Source of the DNA: a virus
DNA: 64,000 nt
Virus record (IMG/VR): IMGVR_UViG_3300048074_000027
Span: 676 to 64,675 of that record
Reading direction: 5' to 3' (one strand)
Shown here: in pieces, positions 6,248 through 62,240 of the stretch
How positions within the stretch are numbered: the first letter of the stretch is position 1
Layout: every line of letters begins with the position of its first letter
Program-made: the position numbers and the translations under genes
Notes under the pieces: model-generated
The model's database searches: none
Seen by the model: only the letters and a program-made list of their open reading frames with translations
Told to the model about the DNA's origin: nothing

Positions 6248-6415
6248 TCGGAGTCCCGCCCGCAAGGATCGGAGTCCCGCCCGCAAGGAAGTGACTCGCT
6301 CTTAACCCCGATGGGGTATCGCTCGTTTCTACAGATTCCGCCTGCCCCTTCGGGTGTGCTTGAATGGGCGGGTGGCGAAAATAAATTGCACGCGAGTGCT
6401 CTTTTGTCTGTTAAT
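6248..6415 (+). repeat. Element A, copy 1 (21-bp tandem duplication at 6248-6289; ends in TTGCAC-18-GTTAAT promoter)
   Basis: Aligns by eye to 38374-38518 (minus) and 60908-60969 (plus). Confidence 0.85.
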
Positions 6416-6421
6416 TGAGAC

Positions 6422-6736
6422 ATGGAAAAAATCGCTCTTAAAACAAGTCGCATAGCAACTCCGATCTGGCGCTGTAGGTGCTGTGGCGCTGAAAACGATC
6501 AACGCGGTTGCGTTAAAGGCCCGCCGAATTGTTTCTGCGAAAAAGACAAAAGCCTACTAATGGAGCCTCTGCGCTGTACGTGGTGTGATAAGTGCTCAAC
6601 GCACTGCCGCTGCCATGACAGCCTTTGTAAGTGCAGGTTTCTTGAAGTGCGGTTCACGGCAAATGTGCCGCAAGGCCACGCGCCAAACTGTCAAAGCCGG
6701 AAACTGTTTCGGGAGCGCCTTCGCCATCCGGCGTAG
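6422..6736 (+). CDS. Cys-rich protein (14 Cys in 104 aa), cargo of A1-B1
   Basis: ATG 6 nt after GTTAAT; stop codon lies within element B1. Confidence 0.65.
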   Translation: MEKIALKTSRIATPIWRCRCCGAENDQRGCVKGPPNCFCEKDKSLLMEPLRCTWCDKCSTHCRCHDSLCKCRFLEVRFTANVPQGHAPNCQSRKLFRERLRHPA

Positions 6737-6875
6737 CCGAGAGCGGGGCGGCGGGCGGGCGGAAGAAACCGGAATGCCCTCGCGCACTCCATTCCGTCGG
6801 CTCGCTCAATCGCTCACACGACTGCACTGCCGTGCTAGGGGGTCGTCTCTTACCCCTACAGGGTGGCGTTCCTTC
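6722..6875 (+). repeat. Element B, copy 1
   Basis: First 19 nt identical to B2 (37778 downward); aligns to 62106-62240. Confidence 0.85.
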
Positions 6876-35561: not shown

Positions 35562-36590
35562 TTAGGCTTCGCGGGTAATGAGCCGGGCAATTTTGACTTG
35601 CTTTCGCTCCGGGTAGACACGCATCCAGCTATCCGCGTGCGCCAGATTGCCCGATGTTGCGGCGTTTGCAGGCCCGCCCGATGTGACCGTGCCGACGAAC
35701 TTGTTGCCAACAGGGTGCATAATCAATTCCCAGCGATGATGCAGCGTTTCGCCGCCGCCGCCGTTGCCGGAAAGCGGATTACGGAATGTCTCTGTTGGTG
35801 TCTTTGGCCCGCCCTGCCCAAGCCGGACAGCGCCACGCCCAAAGAGCCAGGTATTGTAGACGCTGGTTGCTTTCGGCATCGCGTCATCAACGATAACTTG
35901 CACGCCTTGAAACGTCGGGATATTAACCACGCCTTGAGAGTCAGGTATGAAGTCAATCAAATTGTTTTTCTGCATCCGCGCATAAACAACCGAATGCACC
36001 ATCATCAACGCCAAATCATCCATCGAATCGCCCATCGTCAACTTAGCATCAATGAAAGCTTCGGCAGAGAAGTTCGTTACGCCGTCTGTAAATGACGATC
36101 CTGAAATGTCGTTCGTCATATCGCCCGCCGTATGCTCGGAGCCAGACGGCGCAGCGGCATTGTCGGCAAACAGGCCGGTGATGGTTGCGACGAATACATC
36201 CTGATACCGGCGCGCACGATACGCTGCAACACGTGAAGCGATGGACGCCATCGGGTCGCTTCCTGCCAAGTCGCCCGCAAGGTCTGACGTTTGCCAGACT
36301 TGGTTGCGGCTCAAGCGGACAAAGATTTCATCCACTGCGGCGGTTTTCTTTGGCGTGGCATCGGAGACGGTAGGGAGTGCGTCAGACGATACGTTGTCCG
36401 CATCGTCGGCGAGGTCTTTCCAGCTTGGCGCGTTGCCGGTGTTGCCGCCTCCCAAAAGGAATTGGTCAAGCATCGGCTCGCTGACGAGTGCGCCGGAACC
36501 GATGAGGCGCGATTTGACTTCGGTGAGTTGTTGAACGTAGGGGTTAAATACTTCAGGGACGATAACGTCCGCGATCTGTGTACCTGCCAT
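35562..36590 (-). CDS. Major capsid protein
   Basis: DVIVPEVFNPYV start, ~340 aa, follows scaffold. Confidence 0.9.
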   Translation of the reverse strand: MAGTQIADVIVPEVFNPYVQQLTEVKSRLIGSGALVSEPMLDQFLLGGGNTGNAPSWKDLADDADNVSSDALPTVSDATPKKTAAVDEIFVRLSRNQVWQTSDLAGDLAGSDPMASIASRVAAYRARRYQDVFVATITGLFADNAAAPSGSEHTAGDMTNDISGSSFTDGVTNFSAEAFIDAKLTMGDSMDDLALMMVHSVVYARMQKNNLIDFIPDSQGVVNIPTFQGVQVIVDDAMPKATSVYNTWLFGRGAVRLGQGGPKTPTETFRNPLSGNGGGGETLHHRWELIMHPVGNKFVGTVTSGGPANAATSGNLAHADSWMRVYPERKQVKIARLITREA

Positions 36591-36698
36591 ATAAAGCTCC
36601 AATTTGCTGTCAAATCAGAGCCGCGTCCATGACCCGCCCTGTAGGTTTCATTTAAGGCCCGATGTCATCATCCGGCCCGGTTACAATGCTTCAAGAAT

Positions 36699-37550
36699 CT
36701 ATGCGGCCTTTGCCTGCGGTTTTGCACCGCCAATGGATGTCCCGGCTTGCTTGGCCAACTGTTGCGCCTTTTCCATTCCGTGTTTGCTGATGTACTGTCC
36801 CTGATCGGTCAGGTTCCAGTTCTCGCCTTTCCACGGATTCAAACCACTGCCGCCGTTGCCCGTGTCGCCGCGTGCGCCACCGCCTTCACTTGGCCCCCAC
36901 CACAACGGGCGCTTGGCCTGCATTTCGCTAAACCATATGTCAGCGGTAATGCCGGGCGTCACGCCTACGCCGTCTTTCGTGACGACGCGGCCATCGCTGG
37001 AAATCTCAAACATCCGTTCCGCATTAAGTAAAATATCTTCTTCCGCTTCCTGCGCTGCCTTGACTTGCACGCGAGCTTTGCGGACTTCATCGGTAATCAA
37101 TCGCAATCTGTCTTTCGTTTCCAGTCCGATCAGCTTTTCCGTCGCGGTTTTCAGCTTTTCTTCCGTTAGTGTCTTTTCGCGCTCAATCGGTGCAAGCTTC
37201 GTCTTGAGGCGGCTTTCGACAATCTCATTCAACTTGGCCTCATCAACCTTGCCGCTTGCTGCGGTTTTAAGTTCGTCGTATCCATCGAATGCCTCAATGA
37301 CGGTTTTCAACTGATCGTCGGACATTTCCACGATAGATTGATTGTCAAAGTGAAGCGGTCGCAAACGATCCTTCGTGCCTTTGTGCGCGAGTCGTTCCGC
37401 GTCCAGGCTTCGCTGTACCCGGTCAACATCTTCCTGCGTTTTCAGCCCTGCGATGCCGGTCAGTTGCCATTTGCCGTTCCGTTCCGTGAACAATTCCCGG
37501 TGATTTTCGGGAATGTCGTCTTGCTTTTCGTAAACAAGATTCAACGCCAT
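36699..37550 (-). CDS. Capsid scaffolding protein
   Basis: Coiled coil; SEGGGARG...NPW...WNLTDQG C-terminus. Confidence 0.8.
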   Translation of the reverse strand: MALNLVYEKQDDIPENHRELFTERNGKWQLTGIAGLKTQEDVDRVQRSLDAERLAHKGTKDRLRPLHFDNQSIVEMSDDQLKTVIEAFDGYDELKTAASGKVDEAKLNEIVESRLKTKLAPIEREKTLTEEKLKTATEKLIGLETKDRLRLITDEVRKARVQVKAAQEAEEDILLNAERMFEISSDGRVVTKDGVGVTPGITADIWFSEMQAKRPLWWGPSEGGGARGDTGNGGSGLNPWKGENWNLTDQGQYISKHGMEKAQQLAKQAGTSIGGAKPQAKAA

Positions 37551-37620
37551 GCGCAAATCCTTTGTGTGTTACCTTGCCGGATCAATCCGCCAAGTGCGCC
37601 GTGGTCAACCAAAGCGCGGA

Positions 37621-37778
37621 GAAGGAGTGCCGCCCCAGAGGGGCAAACGACGACCCCCCGCCCTCGGCAGTGAAGCAGTGCGGCGCGACTTAGCGACGCC
37701 TGCGGAATGGAGACGGGCGAGGGCTGCCTTTTGTCTTCCGCCCGCCCCGCTGCCCCGTTTCGGCTACGCCGGATGGCG
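37621..37778 (-). repeat. Element B, copy 2
   Basis: Starts immediately after the stop of 37779..37991; aligns to B1 and B3. Confidence 0.85.
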
Positions 37779-37991
37779 CTAAGTATTCAGCTTAAGCCAA
37801 CCTCGAAGAAACTGAATCTCTTTGGATTGAGCCTCAATTACCCTGCGAGCAAATTTATCGATCTCGCCAGAAAGCCCGGTTTTGATAACTTTTTCGGACA
37901 TCTCAATCGCCATTTGGTGATGCGGAATCATTTCCTTAGCGTACTTGATGTCATTCTTGATGTCGTACTGTGAAGATGAAGGCATTTCCAT
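37779..37991 (-). CDS. DUF305-like (ferritin-like) small protein
   Basis: MIPHHQMAIEM...IEAQSKEI motif. Confidence 0.75.
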   Translation of the reverse strand: MEMPSSSQYDIKNDIKYAKEMIPHHQMAIEMSEKVIKTGLSGEIDKFARRVIEAQSKEIQFLRGWLKLNT

Positions 37992-38028
37992 TTTATTTAT
38001 CCTTTTTGGTTCATTAGGCACTGTTGAT

Positions 38029-38367
38029 TTATAAGCTTGACGCGGAGCGAGAGCGCACGGCAAGTATTTGCTTGTGATATTCAAGATCGCGCTGCAATGA
38101 TTCGATCATCAGTTTTTGCTTTCCAATGATCTCATTGCCCCCATTGATTTGCCTTTGTTTTGAGGCTAGTTCAAGGGATACAGCGGAGTTGGCAGCGTCT
38201 AGCCCATTTGCGAAATGGCTAATCCGGCAATGGTGGCAATTGCAATCCTGCTCGCAAGCGTCCCACTGCGCGCACTTCGGAAATTTCTCTTCCTGCAAAT
38301 CGCGCAGGAAGTCTGCGGCTTCGCCAATTTCGAGATAGTCAGTGTTAGGTGAAAGATGGTTATTCAT
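38029..38367 (-). CDS. Hypothetical protein with Cys/His cluster and coiled coil
   Basis: ATG 6 nt after GTTAAT of element A2; CAQWDACEQDCNCHHC. Confidence 0.6.
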   Translation of the reverse strand: MNNHLSPNTDYLEIGEAADFLRDLQEEKFPKCAQWDACEQDCNCHHCRISHFANGLDAANSAVSLELASKQRQINGGNEIIGKQKLMIESLQRDLEYHKQILAVRSRSASSL

Positions 38368-38373
38368 AATGGC

Positions 38374-38518
38374 ATTAACGGACAAAAGGACGACCGTGTG
38401 CAACTTATTTTCGCAACCCGCCCACTTCAAGAAAACCCGAAGGGGCGGCGGAATCTGTAGAAACGAGCGGCACCCCAGAGGGGTGGTAAGCGAGTCACTC
38501 CTGGCGGGCGGAACTCCG
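38374..38518 (-). repeat. Element A, copy 2 (ends in TTGCAC-18-GTTAAT promoter)
   Basis: Aligns along its length to A1. Confidence 0.85.
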
Positions 38519-38660
38519 CTAAACCAAAAGCGCGACAGTCGTCCCTTTCGGAATAACTGCCGCGCTCATCTCGGTCACGATAGCCTTGTTGAGAAGTGGT
38601 GTCAGCCCATTGGGTTCATGATTCCCAAACTGCGCGCGCGGACTGACATAAATTAAGATA

Positions 38661-38732
38661 TTGCGGCGATGGGAATTGAACCCACTATTTCAAGGTTATG
38701 AGCCTTGCGACTTACCGGTCGTCCTCACCGCG
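38661..38732 (-). tRNA. tRNA with CAT anticodon, initiator (fMet)-like; no encoded CCA
   Basis: Cloverleaf: CAAGG-CT CAT AA-CCTTG, TTCAATT T-loop, C1:A72 mismatch, A11:U24. Confidence 0.8.
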
Positions 38733-39240: not shown

Positions 39241-39426
39241 CTAATCTAATAAAACAATTTGCTTTGATTCTTCAATTATTTCAATGTTCGGCATAAGCTC
39301 TCTGAACAAATAAATAGCATTACATAGTAATTGAGTTGCAATTGCTCGATTTGGCGCGCAGCACAACTCATCCACAACAACTCCATCTAATGTTTCAAAT
39401 TTAATCCTGTAACGCTTATTTTCCAT
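39241..39426 (-). CDS. Small AT-rich hypothetical protein
   Basis: Overlaps the portal stop codon. Confidence 0.5.
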   Translation of the reverse strand: MENKRYRIKFETLDGVVVDELCCAPNRAIATQLLCNAIYLFRELMPNIEIIEESKQIVLLD

Positions 39427-40912
39427 TTTGACTCGCGGGAACGTCTGGCGGTTGGCCCGTTACAGGCTGCGGCATCAATTCCATTTTCGCTTTCTTCTCT
39501 TCCATCACCTTCGCCATTTCCGCCACAAACTTCTTATCCGTGAATTCGTTTTCCACAAGTAAATCGTGAACAGACTCATCCGAAAGCGGCAAGCCTTTTT
39601 CGCGTGCGCTTTGCAAGTCAAGGAATTCAGCGGGCGTCATTCCCGCTTCGACAAATTCCGTGTTCGGGAAGACATTGACCTTTGCCGGGTCTGCGCCCAT
39701 CCATTCCGCAATAATGCGAAGCATTGATTGAAGCCCTTCGCCGCCTGTCAGTGCAATCTGTTTCAGCGTAACCGTCTGCGCTGCTACTCGCACTTTCAAG
39801 GCTTCGCCGGATTCCTTTTGCCGCGACGACGTATCCAGCATTTGCCCGGCAATCTCTTTCGCTTCGTTTCGGTCATTTTCGAGCGCTTGGCGTTGCTCCG
39901 GCAATCCGGCTGAGTTTGTGCCGATGAATTCCGTTGGGTTGGCAGCGTCCAATGGCGGACAAATCGTCGCGCCGTAGCCGATGCGGTAGGTTGTTTCAGG
40001 ATCGCCGCCTGGAACGACTAATGTATCCTGCGATTGCGCGAATAGCCCTTGCCTATAATCCGCTTCGCCTCGATAGATCGTCAAGCACAAGTCCGCCAAT
40101 TCATCCATCGGCGGCATTTGTGGGCAGGGTACAAGGTCAGTCGCGTTGATAAACACGAACGGAATTTTATTGAGCGTCTTGCCGCGCAGCTTCGGCTCCA
40201 TCAATCCGTTTTCATCAAATCCGTTCGCATCCAAGAATACGCCTTGCCTGTAAACGCCCATCGGTTCCGCTGCCGTCACGTCACCAATGACCAGCACGCG
40301 ATATTTGATGACTTCAACCCATTCAAAGTTGGCGTTCATTACCTTTTCCGTTTCATTCAAAACGACAAGGTTCAATGACTGGATAACCGGATTCCCGCGC
40401 TGGCCATCGTTCCAATTCGTAATGGTCTCAGCGGAATAAAGCGCAATCGCGGGCATAGACTCAAGCGTCTTACCTTTCGGCATGTCGCTCATCAATCCGA
40501 CTCTGCCAACCGTCAACTGCTCTGCGTTAATGCGACGAAGCAGCAAGGACAAGGATTCGCCGGATGTGCTGGCGAGCGTTCGCAGCGGTTCCATCGCAGG
40601 CGGCAATTCAATCACGGCGGCTTGGCTGTGCATCGCGCCAACCATCTGTTCGACAGCACGTTTGACGTAATTTGGGAACCGCGCACGCTTTTTGTAAGCG
40701 AGGTAGTTCTTGTAGCCGTCTTGGTGTGTCAGCATCCCGTCAATCAATTGGCCGGGCGTGGCGGGCAAATAACACCGAGCCTTTGTTGAGTCGCCCGTGT
40801 CTACAGCCTTAATCCACGCTTCGCCCTTGTAGCAGTCGCGGAGCTTTTGCCACGTTTCGGCCATATCTGTGTATTGTGGATGCCTTGAGTCTAAAGCCAT
40901 TCTTTTATCCAA
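39416..40912 (-). CDS. Portal protein (DUF4055-like)
   Basis: HPQY...W...RDCYKGE...YLP...AYKKRARF; directly after terminase. Confidence 0.9.
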   Translation of the reverse strand: MDKRMALDSRHPQYTDMAETWQKLRDCYKGEAWIKAVDTGDSTKARCYLPATPGQLIDGMLTHQDGYKNYLAYKKRARFPNYVKRAVEQMVGAMHSQAAVIELPPAMEPLRTLASTSGESLSLLLRRINAEQLTVGRVGLMSDMPKGKTLESMPAIALYSAETITNWNDGQRGNPVIQSLNLVVLNETEKVMNANFEWVEVIKYRVLVIGDVTAAEPMGVYRQGVFLDANGFDENGLMEPKLRGKTLNKIPFVFINATDLVPCPQMPPMDELADLCLTIYRGEADYRQGLFAQSQDTLVVPGGDPETTYRIGYGATICPPLDAANPTEFIGTNSAGLPEQRQALENDRNEAKEIAGQMLDTSSRQKESGEALKVRVAAQTVTLKQIALTGGEGLQSMLRIIAEWMGADPAKVNVFPNTEFVEAGMTPAEFLDLQSAREKGLPLSDESVHDLLVENEFTDKKFVAEMAKVMEEKKAKMELMPQPVTGQPPDVPASQNGK

Positions 40913-50316: not shown

Positions 50317-50829
50317 TCATCTTCTGCCTTCTAAGTAACTATCCTTGAACAGGTTAGGAAAGGCTACGGCTAAAAGGCTATCGTCTCGTTTACACGGATG
50401 ACTGTCTGGCATCAATTGCCGCAAATCCGCACGCTGAAGTTCTTGATATTTCAGCCATCGCATTTTCTTGTCTGGGTATTGATGACGAAGAATAGATTTC
50501 TGAATCGCGTCTTTGTCTCGCTTCCGCCAAGTGTGACTCATTACTTGGCGATTCAATAGCGGCTTGTTTTCGACAATCGCAAACTTTTCCACTTCCCAAA
50601 GTTCAATACGCCGAACCTGCAACCACGCGATCTTAGTTGCGCCTTCCGCCGCTGCTTTCTTTATGTGATGATGATTCACCCAGCGCGCTCTTATATTCTG
50701 CGCTGAGCCGATATAGAGAAGCCTACGTTCGGCCATCACAAAATAGACGCCCCAAGTATCGGGTAGTTTGTCACGCTCACTAAAAGCGACAGAGGGCAAT
50801 CCGTGAAAGGTGAGCGGCAAGAATCTCAT
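50317..50829 (-). CDS. GIY-YIG nuclease-domain protein
   Basis: GVYFV...LLYIGSAQNIRARW...E...N. Confidence 0.8.
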   Translation of the reverse strand: MRFLPLTFHGLPSVAFSERDKLPDTWGVYFVMAERRLLYIGSAQNIRARWVNHHHIKKAAAEGATKIAWLQVRRIELWEVEKFAIVENKPLLNRQVMSHTWRKRDKDAIQKSILRHQYPDKKMRWLKYQELQRADLRQLMPDSHPCKRDDSLLAVAFPNLFKDSYLEGRR

Positions 50830-51041
50830 ATCTTTAGAAGCTTCTCGGTGATTACGCCTCGGCGCTCTAGCACGATCAATTGTAGCGCCCGTTTCAACAT
50901 AGCTGGATGACGCGGTTTTCGTCTGCCGGTATACCAAGCCATCACCACCTTATCATTCGCATCTAATTGTTCAGCCAGCCGGGAATAGGTCAGTCCGGTT
51001 GCGTCAATCAGTCCGCGAAGTTCAATATCAATCTCATTCAT
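50826..51041 (-). CDS. Small HTH protein coupled to the GIY-YIG gene
   Basis: GLTYSRLAEQLD...VMAWYTGRRKP; ATGA overlap. Confidence 0.75.
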   Translation of the reverse strand: MNEIDIELRGLIDATGLTYSRLAEQLDANDKVVMAWYTGRRKPRHPAMLKRALQLIVLERRGVITEKLLKI

Positions 51042-51344: not shown

Positions 51345-53520
51345 TTAGCTTTTAACCTCCACATGCCGCACACATCCCGGCACTTTACACAGAATCCTAA
51401 ACTTCGCGCCCATCGGCACAATCTGCCCGCGCATCTCAATCGCAAACCGGCGCGGCTTCACGATGCGGCCATCGCCTGCGTTGAAGTTGACGCCCTCGAA
51501 TATCTGGCAAGGATCACGAAGGCCCTCTGGCGCATCCTGCTCGCGCAGCAAAGCTCGGAACCGCTCGTTTGCGTCGGTAACAGTGCGCGGCGCTTGGTTT
51601 TTCACGGTGAAGCCGTCGCGGTTTATGCGAAATTCGGTTTGCATAATTTACTCCCTATTGGATTGACTATAGCTGACAATTAAACATCGTCTATTTTATC
51701 AAATCTCACGCATGGACAGTCGCCGATCATTTCATTTATGAACGCTTCGCACTCACCGTCAGCAGGATGAGATTCTCTCCGATGCGTACAGGTACACATA
51801 TCGCTTGCGCTATCGTCACAGCAGGCTACGGCATCGGACTCGCTATCGTGTTCCTCTTCGCATTCACCGCAAACATACACGCGCCTGACTGGTTCTTTAC
51901 AGCAAACCTCGGCTTCGCCATGCGTCTCACATAACGTCCCACAGTGCGGACATTTCCATTGTTCTTTTGCGTTCACTTACTCAACCTCCTTGCCGGCAAT
52001 CAGCCGGTGTGCTTCGTAAAAATCTTGCGCTGTCGTCACGCCCCTTAGCCATACCATTGCCGATCCGGTAAACAGCCAGACGCGAAACGGATGCAAAGGA
52101 TGCTCGTTGAATCGAACGCCGATTCTGCGTTCCGGCGGGTGTAGTTCATTATCGCTGCCAATTTCCATCCAGTATTCCGGGCAAGGCGTCTCAAAATTCG
52201 GGTACCAGGTGATGTTTTTAAGCCCTGTTACCTGACACCATTTTTCAGTAATCGCTTCACTCATTCGCTCGCGCCTCCCCGCGCTTTACTGTCCGCAAAA
52301 TCAGATTGCCTTTTCACCTCGCAAGACATCCGATGGTGCGGCCATTTCACGTCGTATCCGGCCCGCCTCATTGTGGCATCTATATCCACATTGCAGAGGC
52401 AATAATTATCCTCTTCGTCACCGGGTTCGGATGCGTTTTCAGCGTCCCAAAACTTGATAGAGTCATTGCCGACCAGCGCCCGAAGCTGCCCAAGCGTTTC
52501 AATCTCTGTTTCATTGCCAATATAGATCGAGATGCACATTTTAACCTTCCGCCTCCAATTCCTCCGGCCACTCTTCCGCCAACACCAACTCATCGCTTGC
52601 CGCGCCGCCTACGTGGTCACACGGCATCCGGCCTTCGACTCGGAAGCGCCAGGATTCCGTAACCACGCGCTCCGCATCTTCGGCAGCGGTAACGATTGCG
52701 CCGGACTTGAGGCGCACCGTGTCACCTTTGCGGATTTGGTCAAGTCGTTTGGTCATTTAAGCTCCACTTTTCCAAAACCACACCGACACAGCGCAGCTTT
52801 GGTTAATTCCTCAACCATCAGTGCGAGCGACTCGCTTAGTGTAAACCGCTCGCTTCCTTCGCCGGAAAGCCACATCTTGCCATCATCAATAATCAGCGCT
52901 ACCGTACTCGGGATGTTCGGCGACTTGTCATCGTGGCTGCGGACATTGATCGCCGCGTCAAGCAATTCTTCTATCGTTTCAAACACAATTATATTTTTCA
53001 TTCAGCCCTCATACTTATCGCCCTTGTGATACTTCCCCGCTGGCACGGCAACAAAGAACCGATCCTCGACGCCTTGCCGAGCGATGGCCATCTTAATAAT
53101 CCCTTCGGCGGCATCTTCTGTTTTATTCGGCTCAAGCCAAAGGATTTCGCCGCTGTCGGAGCTGACGGCGATTGCGTCAAAGAATTGGTGCATCTGAACA
53201 TCTTCAACAAGCCAAAACTTAGGCGTCAAATTGTGCTTTTCCATCCACGCCTTAAATGTCTTCCGCAGCCCTTCGGTCAACTCGTCAACTTGTTCTTTTG
53301 AAGCTTCTGGCCAATCTTCAGCTTGCTCAATGTAAAAGTCTTCAAGTTGGCAAATCTGTTCAATTACATCTTGGCCATCAATACCGAACATGACATCGGG
53401 CGGACGATTCTCCCCCGTCCAAAACTTGCTCAGCCCTTCCGCTCTAGCTTCCGCAATCGCAAGCTCTCGCGTTGCAAATTCGCCGGTGTAGTGTTCTTCG
53501 TTATGTGAGTATGAAAACAT
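51345..53520 (-). CDS. Small hypothetical genes (51345..51644, 51680..51976 Zn-finger, 51977..52264, 52261..~52539, 52541..52756, 52753..53001, 53002..53520)
   Basis: Abutting ORFs with RBS motifs. Confidence 0.6.
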
Positions 53521-53857
53521 TATCGCCTCCCCTCATCCGCAGTTTCCCGCTATCCGTTATCGCGCCCATCTTCTCGACCTGCTTTTCCAGCAACGGCTCA
53601 AGCGCGATGCCGAAGCGGTCAGCAAGCGCCGCCGCGTTAAAGATGATTGCCGCAAGCTGCACTTTCGCTGCCTCGCTGTAGGACTGGCGAAATATCATCA
53701 TTGCGGCGTCATTGAATGGGCGCGTGGTCACATCTTCAGCGGCAAGCTGCGTCTTGGCCATTTCGCCCATTGCAATCATCAAGTTCATTGTGAGCCTGTC
53801 AGCCGTAAGCCCTTCGGCGTTGCGGGCGGCGGCGGATTGGTAGTGTTCGAGGTTCAT
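53501..53857 (-). CDS. MazG-like protein with degenerate catalytic motif
   Basis: MNLEHYQ..A.R...GE...LA.RFGIALE pattern; acidic metal ligands largely replaced. Confidence 0.55.
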   Translation of the reverse strand: MNLEHYQSAAARNAEGLTADRLTMNLMIAMGEMAKTQLAAEDVTTRPFNDAAMMIFRQSYSEAAKVQLAAIIFNAAALADRFGIALEPLLEKQVEKMGAITDSGKLRMRGGDNVFILT

Positions 53858-60728: not shown

Positions 60729-61061
60729 TTAATAACCCCCCACTTCTGACTCCATCAAGTTTTCTTCCTCCATCTTCTGACGACGGTTCCACTCTTCAAT
60801 TTCAGCCTGATGATAGTCTTCCGCGTCTTGTCCGTCTCGAACCGCGTCTTCTTCTTCACCGACTAAATCCTCGGTTTCAATTAAGCATTGAGGCAAGTCG
60901 TGACTGGATCGGAGTTCCGCCCGCCCAAGCGACTCGCTTTCAGCCCCTACAGGGCATCGCTCGTTTCTGCATTCGTTTTTCTTGCGTCCAGCACTCAATG
61001 GTTCGCCCTCAGTTAGATTGTAGATATTCTTTGGCTTCGTCGTACGCTTGAAGTAAGCCAT
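60729..61061 (-). CDS. Hypothetical acidic protein whose ORF runs through element A3
   Basis: ORF track; RBS plausible. Confidence 0.45.
   Translation of the reverse strand: MAYFKRTTKPKNIYNLTEGEPLSAGRKKNECRNERCPVGAESESLGRAELRSSHDLPQCLIETEDLVGEEEDAVRDGQDAEDYHQAEIEEWNRRQKMEEENLMESEVGGY
60908..60969 (+). repeat. Element A, copy 3 (core only, no promoter part)
   Basis: ATCGGAGTTCCGCCCGCC...GACTCGCT...GCCCCTACAGGGCATCGCTCGTTTCT. Confidence 0.8.
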
Positions 61062-62105: not shown

Positions 62106-62240
62106 CCGAAAAACGGGGCGGGCGGAAAACACCAGAAGGCCCTGGCCCGCTCCGGCTACAGCGGCTCGCTCAATCGCTCGCACGCCTTCTCCATCCGGGG
62201 CCGGGGGTCGTCACTTGCCCCTACAGGGCAGCGTTCCTTC
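62106..62240 (+). repeat. Element B, copy 3
   Basis: GGGGCGGGCGGAA...GGCTCGCTCAATCGCTC...GGGGGTCGTC...GCCCCTACAGGGCAGCGTTCCTTC. Confidence 0.85.

Follow-up and report, generated by a model that had tools for sequence, protein, structure and literature searches.

IS200/IS605 elements move by single-strand transposition (PMC3597680), and gene-less derivatives of them, called PATEs, have been described (PMC3119063). T4-type phages contain the PeSL mobile regulatory cassettes, in which one short promoter-plus-terminator unit stands on both sides of an ORF (PMC2839356, PMC4122927). Integron cassettes are a further system for comparison; each carries a folded element, attC. Phage morons consist of a promoter, a gene and a terminator inserted between conserved genes.

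The locus described here, cassette 2, is a unit of two small genes between two unlike structured ends, A and B. It was studied in a window of 64,000 nucleotides, which comes from an IMG/VR virus contig (65 kb, estimated to be 76% complete). The window holds three A/B pairs, one per cassette, and further members of the family were found elsewhere.

Comparison with known systems

By analogy, the closest model is the single-strand transposition of IS200/IS605. Like these elements and PATEs, the cassette family has asymmetric ends, imperfect subterminal hairpins in the same orientation at both ends, strand-specific folding and non-autonomous copies, together with neither terminal inverted repeats nor target duplication. 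Unlike IS200/IS605, it has no TnpA or TnpB in its units or in the phages searched. A six-frame search for Y1_Tnp (PF01797) found nothing in five phage records, among them cassette 2's own and a complete genome. TnpB (PF07282) was found in none of five other phage records, including the complete genome, and in cassette 2's own genome none appeared in the sole test there, a Pfam screen of the 72 window ORFs. Across the family, 73 cargo ORFs include no TnpA or TnpB, and no mobility gene beyond one HNH. IS200/IS605 elements also require a tetra- or pentanucleotide target abutting the left end, whereas no such sequence is conserved in 80 left flanks of the cassette family. Further differences are that the cassette ends base-pair with each other (IR with IR', GGAG with CTCC), that the cargo is diverse (0.3-1.6 kb) and that arrays occur. 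Because TnpA and TnpB were not found and no left target is conserved, cassette 2 is not filed as an IS200/IS605 member.

With PeSL, the family shares conserved non-coding modules that bracket small accessory phage ORFs, modular shuffling, and recombination between neighbouring modules. In contrast to the single repeated unit of PeSL, it has two different ends, 110 and 160 nt long, which pair with each other, contain covarying stems and keep their outer termini exact in contexts that are unrelated. In neither A nor B was a consensus promoter or terminator called.

Integron cassettes likewise mostly hold single small genes, have a folded, strand-specific element, and form arrays with a structured element between ORFs. 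Unlike them, the present units have two different ends each, are dispersed in the genome, and in many cases carry their own promoter-like signal. The Pfam screen of the 72 window ORFs gave no integron integrase, no platform was seen, and inspection of the ends recognised no R''/R' core. The GTTAAT of A2 was considered as an integron GTTRRRY core and rejected, as the next base is G or T, which does not fit, and the motif is absent from most A copies.

Two other classes were set aside. A MITE of the DDE type does not describe a unit without terminal inverted repeats and without a target duplication of fixed length. A group I intron or another Rfam family does not fit either: Rfam reported tRNA only, and the unit is intergenic; moreover, a group I intron calls for U at -1 and a final G, and the units have G, T or A at -1 and end in C. 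With morons, cassette 2 has in common that it is an accessory transcription unit (in the portal/scaffold interval) whose composition is locally unlike its flanks; unlike morons, the family has shared, structured and mutually pairing ends.

The cassette and its surroundings

The features of cassette 2 and its neighbours are collected in Table 1. The ends of the family were defined from 80 left and 64 right flanks, and positions 37621 and 38518 coincide with the exact ends of the conserved unit. PHROGs matches confirmed that the cassette lies between the portal and scaffold genes. On the gene strand the order is tRNA-Met, a strong hairpin, and then cassette 2 from C38518 to C37621. The hairpin is probably an intrinsic terminator, and the cassette starts 3 nt past its tail.

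Table 1. Coordinates of features in the window.
Feature	Position	Strand	Remarks
Cassette 2, whole unit	37621..38518	-	898 bp, CGGAG... to ...TCCTTC; nhmmer profiles of A and B
Left end A2, core	38407..38518	-	terminal CGGAG, IR, hairpin M_A, stem-loop A'
IR, TTCCGCCCGCC	38503..38513	-	pairs with IR' of B2 (RNAalifold on joined alignment, compensatory alleles, duplex energy)
M_A, imperfect hairpin	38460..38498	-	about 39 nt; tip is the 11-mer at 38473-38483
Promoter-like TTGCAC-N18-GTTAAT	38374..38403	-	6 nt 5' of ATG; candidate leaderless start
Cargo gene 1	38029..38367	-	112 aa, Cys/His cluster
Cargo gene 2	37779..37991	-	70 aa, half-size DUF305/CopM-like, HHQMAIEM motif
Right end B2	37621..37778	-	stop-adjacent hairpin, IR', long covarying stem, M_B, terminal TCCTTC
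IR', GGCGGGCGGAA	37736..37746	-	exact reverse complement of IR
M_B, hairpin	37627..37654	-	tip is the 11-mer at 37633-37643
Flanking direct repeat, left copy CGCGCTTTTGGTT	38522..38534	-	within tail of terminator-like hairpin
Flanking direct repeat, right copy CGCGCTTTGGTT	37607..37618	-	observed score reached by 8/20000 shuffles
Terminator-like hairpin	38519-38578	-	3' of tRNA-Met; -32.9 kcal/mol, z -6.4, tail UUUUGGUUU
Phage tRNA-Met	38662-38731	-	upstream of cassette 2 on gene strand
Portal gene	39416-40912		PHROGs match
Scaffold gene	36699-37556		PHROGs match
Major head protein gene	35562-36602		PHROGs match
A1 and B1	6270-6415 and 6722-6875	+
A3 (short) and B3	60910-60971 and 62114-62240	+	around oppositely running genes
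Leaderless-type layout	38365-38403	-	also in loci L028, L034, L064, L098, L031, L097
Leaderless-type layout	6380-6424	+

The borders of the cargo are as precise as the original prediction had claimed. Six nucleotides separate GTTAAT (38374-38379) from the ATG (38365-38367), and B2 begins at 37778, the base directly after the TAG stop codon (37779-37781).

Cassette 2 is also flanked by an imperfect direct repeat, CGCGCTTT(T)GGTT, which matches at 12 of 13 positions and stands 3 and 2 nt outside the ends. This is no family trait; a comparable repeat (12 nt) is found only in L064. With the portal protein as a probe, IMG/VR gave no close relative with the portal-scaffold interval, and tblastn of all window proteins against about 100 cassette loci gave no locus with the window's portal or scaffold. 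Elsewhere in the window is a free-standing gene resembling a GIY-YIG endonuclease (50317-50937, minus strand; PF01541, 25.4 bits), which adjoins no cassette.

Architecture and folding of the ends

End A has four parts: a terminal (C)GGAG, an IR of 11 nt, the hairpin module M_A and a stem-loop, A', that leads to the start signals of the cargo. End B consists of a small hairpin right after the stop codon, IR', a long stem, the hairpin module M_B and the terminal TCCTTC. M_A and M_B are homologous and have the same orientation, so that an imperfect hairpin of about 40 nt stands at both ends. A and B are otherwise different elements, with only this module of about 38 nt in common.

The stems show compensatory changes. 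In M_A, 30 sequences have G-C and 19 have A-U at one pair of the lower stem; for the closing pair the numbers are 40 G-C and 9 A-U, and one G.U pair is invariant. In M_B, 22 sequences close with G-C and 13 with A-U, while the lower stem occurs as GT..AC, AC..GT and GC..GC. In the long stem of B, the combinations found at pair 87/115 are C-G (21 sequences), G-C (14) and U-A (2), those at 88/114 are C-G (28) and A-U (8), and those at 73/129 are A-U (20), C-G (12) and G-C (2); this stem also contains invariant U.G pairs. Because of the G.U pairs, it is one strand that folds, either as RNA or as single-stranded DNA.

The two ends also pair with each other. In RNAalifold predictions on joined alignments of A and B, GGAG and IR pair with IR'...CTCC, so that the unit is closed as a whole. 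Each allele of IR has its matching allele of IR': CCGCCGTCC occurs with GGACGGCGG, CCGCCTGAC with GTCAGGCGG, TTGCGCTCGC with GCGAGCGCAA, and TCTCGCC with GGCGAGA. The duplex energy of true partners is -25.26 kcal/mol, compared with -24.06 +/- 0.22 for shuffled partners, and was reached in none of 300 shuffles. For cassette 2 itself, TTCCGCCCGCC in A2 proved to be the exact reverse complement of GGCGGGCGGAA in B2, as predicted; a search of the window with this pair gave 6 exact sites, and 10 sites at no more than one mismatch, a count that no shuffle reached. IR' lies inside the unit, some 110 nt short of its right end. From the covariation of IR and IR' it follows that the left terminus must travel with the cassette.

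Rfam searches of the whole window at gathering thresholds, and of the local region at E values up to 5, returned tRNA only. Covariation between the terminal TTC/TCC and a GAA in the right flank was not seen when the aligned flanks were checked by eye.

The shared 11-mer

A2 and B2 contain the same 11-mer, CCCCAGAGGGG on the plus strand and CCCCTCTGGGG on the gene strand. It occurs at exactly two sites in the window, 840 bp apart. Taken alone it is weak, as 7 of 100 shuffles have at least two matches at no more than one mismatch; it extends into a 22-nt direct repeat with 82% identity.

The original prediction regarded this loop as private to the pair, and as a crossover core or a target duplication. 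Inside the window, the loop is indeed restricted to the pair, but across the family the TCT tip is common. In 58 distinct cassettes the tips of A are TCT (23), TAC (13) and others, and those of B are TACA (29) and TCT (23). The tips of A and B are unlike in 39 of the 58 and alike in 19, where 11.3 would be expected (permutation p about 0.001), an enrichment that is inflated because related copies are not independent. Since two thirds of the cassettes have unlike tips, the 11-mer is not a target duplication, nor is it obligatory as a core; a target duplication is also foreign to the family, which has no general TSD. The 11 identical bases form the tip of the hairpin shared by A and B. They are no insertion scar and no crossover site private to the pair, and their identity in cassette 2 is mostly a matter of two common alleles meeting. 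What survives of the crossover core is that the hairpin module is sometimes a place of recombination, as seen in arrays.

Cargo and its expression

Cargo gene 1 encodes a Cys/His cluster, C-x6-C-x3-C-x-C-H-H-C. It has no match in Pfam, PHROGs or PDB, and only three homologues were found besides itself. Metal binding is suggested by the Cys/His cluster only. Cargo gene 2 matches Pfam PF03713 (E 2.5e-15) and CopM (5fej, E 9e-16), as well as the single-half DUF305 structures 7vw0-2, and its homologues are 77-87% identical. By homology, metal binding is plausible here. No A or B was found in viral loci that encode distant DUF305 relatives.

In three loci of other phages (L157:4473-5462, L158:4473-5462 and L159:4758-5954) a half-size DUF305 module with the motif MIPHHQMAIDM appears, by eye, to be fused to a protein resembling a prohead protease or scaffold. 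Such fusions, together with the site of the stand-alone gene between portal and scaffold, hint at a link to head assembly.

The cargo of the family as a whole (73 ORFs) includes 10 N6/N4 DNA methylases and one Dam methylase, so that 11 of 73 are orphan DNA methylases. It further includes two proteins with a PAPS-reductase domain, HTH proteins and one HNH protein, and most of the ORFs have no known family.

Many cassettes lack a Shine-Dalgarno sequence and have, 6-8 nt 5' of the ATG, a pair of sequences resembling -35 and -10 boxes (TTGCAC-N18-GTTAAT/GTTACT or ...TATTGA). The layout of A2, TTGCAC-N18-GTTAAT, recurs in A1, L028, L034 and L064; a simple sigma-70 scan made no call on it. This arrangement suggests that the cargo mRNAs are leaderless. 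In some others, A' is followed by a Shine-Dalgarno sequence alone.

Near-consensus sigma-70 promoters are present downstream of A' in L014, L044, L047, L087, L029, L075, L042 and L086. Their spacers contain short palindromes, for example CAAATGCGAATTTG and CTCTCAATTGAGAG, which look like candidate operator sites of repressors. In L010:12000-12150 an upstream ORF stays open through A and ends at a TGA that overlaps the cargo ATG, and the equivalent frame is open through A2 in the window (AEFRPPGVTRLPPLWGAARFY...).

Family and distribution

A pattern derived from A was found in 8 IMG/VR contigs, 78 metagenome loci and 7 MAG contigs from unrelated phyla. The MAG contigs came from a search of one genome per species over 185,579 species, and all of them hold short cassettes. 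Profile searches gave about 100 copies of A and 83 of B, nearly always as same-strand A-to-B pairs 262-1573 nt apart. The units are 521-1835 bp long, with a median of 800. Neither GenBank phages nor PLSDB plasmids matched the whole unit in blastn, and a less strict B pattern matched 46 loci, all by chance and none of them a true B.

L098 is a close relative of this phage, with 87-94% nucleotide identity over 52.5-57.4 kb. An A/B cassette lies at L098:4878-7166, where the window instead has 766 nt of unrelated DNA (52758-53523). This site was considered as a clean empty site and rejected as such; it is a replacement region. Within the window, the first 21 nt or so of A1 are repeated in tandem ahead of it, GGAGTCCCGCCCGCAAGGATC (6250-6290, plus strand).

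Evidence for mobility

The family is mobile or exchangeable, as the contexts of its units show. There are 80 distinct left flanks and 64 distinct right flanks, and the conserved sequence breaks off abruptly at CGGAG on one side and TCCTTC on the other. In the left flanks, no position exceeds 0.12 bit apart from -1, which has 0.48 bit and is never C. In the right flanks, G is present at +4 in 56 of 64.

Different cassettes can occupy the same site. L029, L059 and L032 have three different cassettes, with B ends that differ to within a few bases of the end, and right flanks that are 100% identical starting with the first base beyond TCCTTC. The left flanks of L029 and L086 are 100% identical up to CGGAG and then the loci diverge. 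An empty and a filled site can be compared in L010, which does not have the cassette of its relative L047: the right junction is exact, and 23 extra nucleotides are present on the left.

Units can also be nested or joined. In L011:7482-7664 and L064:78-1475 a unit with an intact CGGAG terminus lies within the B of another copy, in L011 in the opposite orientation. Arrays in which B runs into A' occur in L044, L066, L075 and L099; the B/A' junction was confirmed at the hairpin in L044 (two junctions), L066 and L075, and the interior cassettes have no IR.

No general TSD was found, the longest word shared by the two flanks averaging 4.3 against 3.9 for shuffled pairs. Cassette 2 and L064 are clear exceptions, and L097 shares only 7 nt.

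Explanations for the cassette

The best explanation is that cassette 2 is a non-autonomous mobile cargo unit that is moved whole and in trans, probably as single-stranded DNA, and we regard this as an evenly balanced call. In its favour are the unlike ends, the same-strand subterminal hairpins, the lack of a general TSD, the exact termini, the nested copies, and the retention of both ends in short-A units, whose cargo tends to be reversed. Against it are the failure of the searches above to find a transposase or recombinase, the left flanks without a conserved target, the 23 extra nucleotides in the one pair of empty and filled sites, and the signs that A is also part of an mRNA. On one strand, the ends fold and pair (GGAG with CTCC, IR with IR'), which brings the termini together. 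An enzyme supplied in trans would recognise both hairpin modules and cut at the outer termini, so that the whole 898-nt unit moves. The most likely intermediate would be single-stranded DNA, as in the "peel and paste" elements of the IS200/IS605 type. Occasional recombination between the hairpin modules of neighbouring units would produce the arrays, and expression of the cargo would use the promoter-like signal that lies 6 nt 5' of its ATG. In this way the family would carry small accessory genes between phages, DNA methylases among them, and here the genes of two small proteins, one CopM-like and probably metal-binding, the other with the Cys/His cluster.

More tentatively, and with clearly less probability, the family may be a phage-specific gene-cassette system of an undescribed kind. 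Two unlike ends would fold, pair and present the termini to an enzyme that is probably encoded by the host or a helper. Units would insert at nearly any position, take each other's place at a given site and be joined into arrays at the shared hairpin, an integron-like exchange with no integrase in cis.

The hairpin core could also be the crossover itself, although this is improbable. Recombination between M_A and M_B would excise an 840-bp circle (A', the cargo and the 5' part of B), as the original prediction proposed, and the circle would re-insert at another hairpin module, like attC or the mini-circles of T4 PeSL. PeSL recombination does lead to encapsidated mini-circles in T4-type phages (PMC2839356), and the hybrid B/A' modules of the arrays in L044, L066 and L075 lie exactly at the hairpin, with interior cassettes that have no IR and like tips somewhat enriched within pairs. 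However, the enrichment is inflated by relatedness and the tips are unlike in 67% of pairs, while the site that such an excision would empty (the 5' flank of A or IR, a hybrid hairpin, and the 3' flank of B, TCCTTC) is absent from the roughly 100 loci and from IMG/VR. New contexts, replacements and nested copies are bordered at the outer termini and not at the hairpins, and the covariation of IR with IR' requires the left terminus to travel with the cassette. If the crossover did take place at the core, a core-to-core junction ...GGGGGTCGTCGTTTG-CCCCTCTGGGG-TGCCGCTCGTTTCT... would be expected. As units that are present, absent or replaced end at CGGAG.../...TCCTTC, outside both hairpins, the relevant read junction is instead the end-to-end junction of the whole unit (898 nt), which corrects the predicted 840 nt. 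A whole-unit circle of 898 nt would give ...CTCCTTC/CGGAGTTCC..., that is, ...GGCACTCCTTC/CGGAGTTCCGCC... (the slash marking the junction), and the empty site would read from the terminator tail ...ACTGTCGCGCTTT(T)GGTT straight into GACCACGGCGC.

Another explanation places the function of the ends in RNA. A and B would be structures of the 5' and 3' UTRs that enclose an ORF and act in processing, stability or translational control, and ordinary phage recombination would spread them, with A and B as portable homology. The G.U pairs and compensatory changes on the coding strand are in keeping with this, as is the direction of the flanking genes, co-directional in 36 cases against 12. In units with a full-length A, the cargo runs from A to B in 56 of 64 (2 are reversed and 6 ambiguous). 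Many copies have a Shine-Dalgarno sequence and ATG directly after A', so A must be transcribed in them. As the cargo mostly runs from A to B, and as nothing but a Shine-Dalgarno sequence follows A' in some cassettes, A is also part of an mRNA and its structure could act as RNA. As a full account this is nevertheless unlikely. Units with a short A keep both ends (IR and M_A, and the complete core of B) even when the cargo is on the other strand, as it tends to be (7 reversed, 4 forward), which argues for a role of the ends at the DNA level. A quarter of the units (25%) run against their neighbours, no Rfam family matches, and homologous recombination does not explain exact termini in 80 unrelated contexts or nesting. 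An RNA-level role may exist alongside the DNA-level one.

Little probability is given to a descent of the ends from TnpB-only (IS1341-like) IS200/IS605 elements of Acidobacteriota, with B as a former omega-RNA scaffold. B is structured, about 160 nt long and 3'-terminal, and it has the direction of the cargo, as an omega-RNA does; the units have hairpins at both ends and no TSD. Against this, a covariance model of B matched only the cassette-bearing contig in 151 Acidobacteriota genomes, a B pattern gave only chance matches over 400 genomes, and the MAG contigs found with the A pattern all hold short cassettes. TnpB is absent from the searches of phages, window and cargo described above and from the MAG that holds L099, and the left flank has no conserved TAM-like sequence.

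Significance

If the units move whole, as the trans-mobilised reading has it, they would be a defined vehicle by which phages of one environment swap small accessory genes. Judged only by how the samples are named, that environment appears to be wastewater and digester metagenomes. Phage mosaicism by this route would then be directly testable, as the two ends are exact, short and simple to assay. An enzyme able to recognise folded ends that are unlike and pair with each other, and needing next to no target sequence, would be of interest to the fields of mobile elements and genome engineering.
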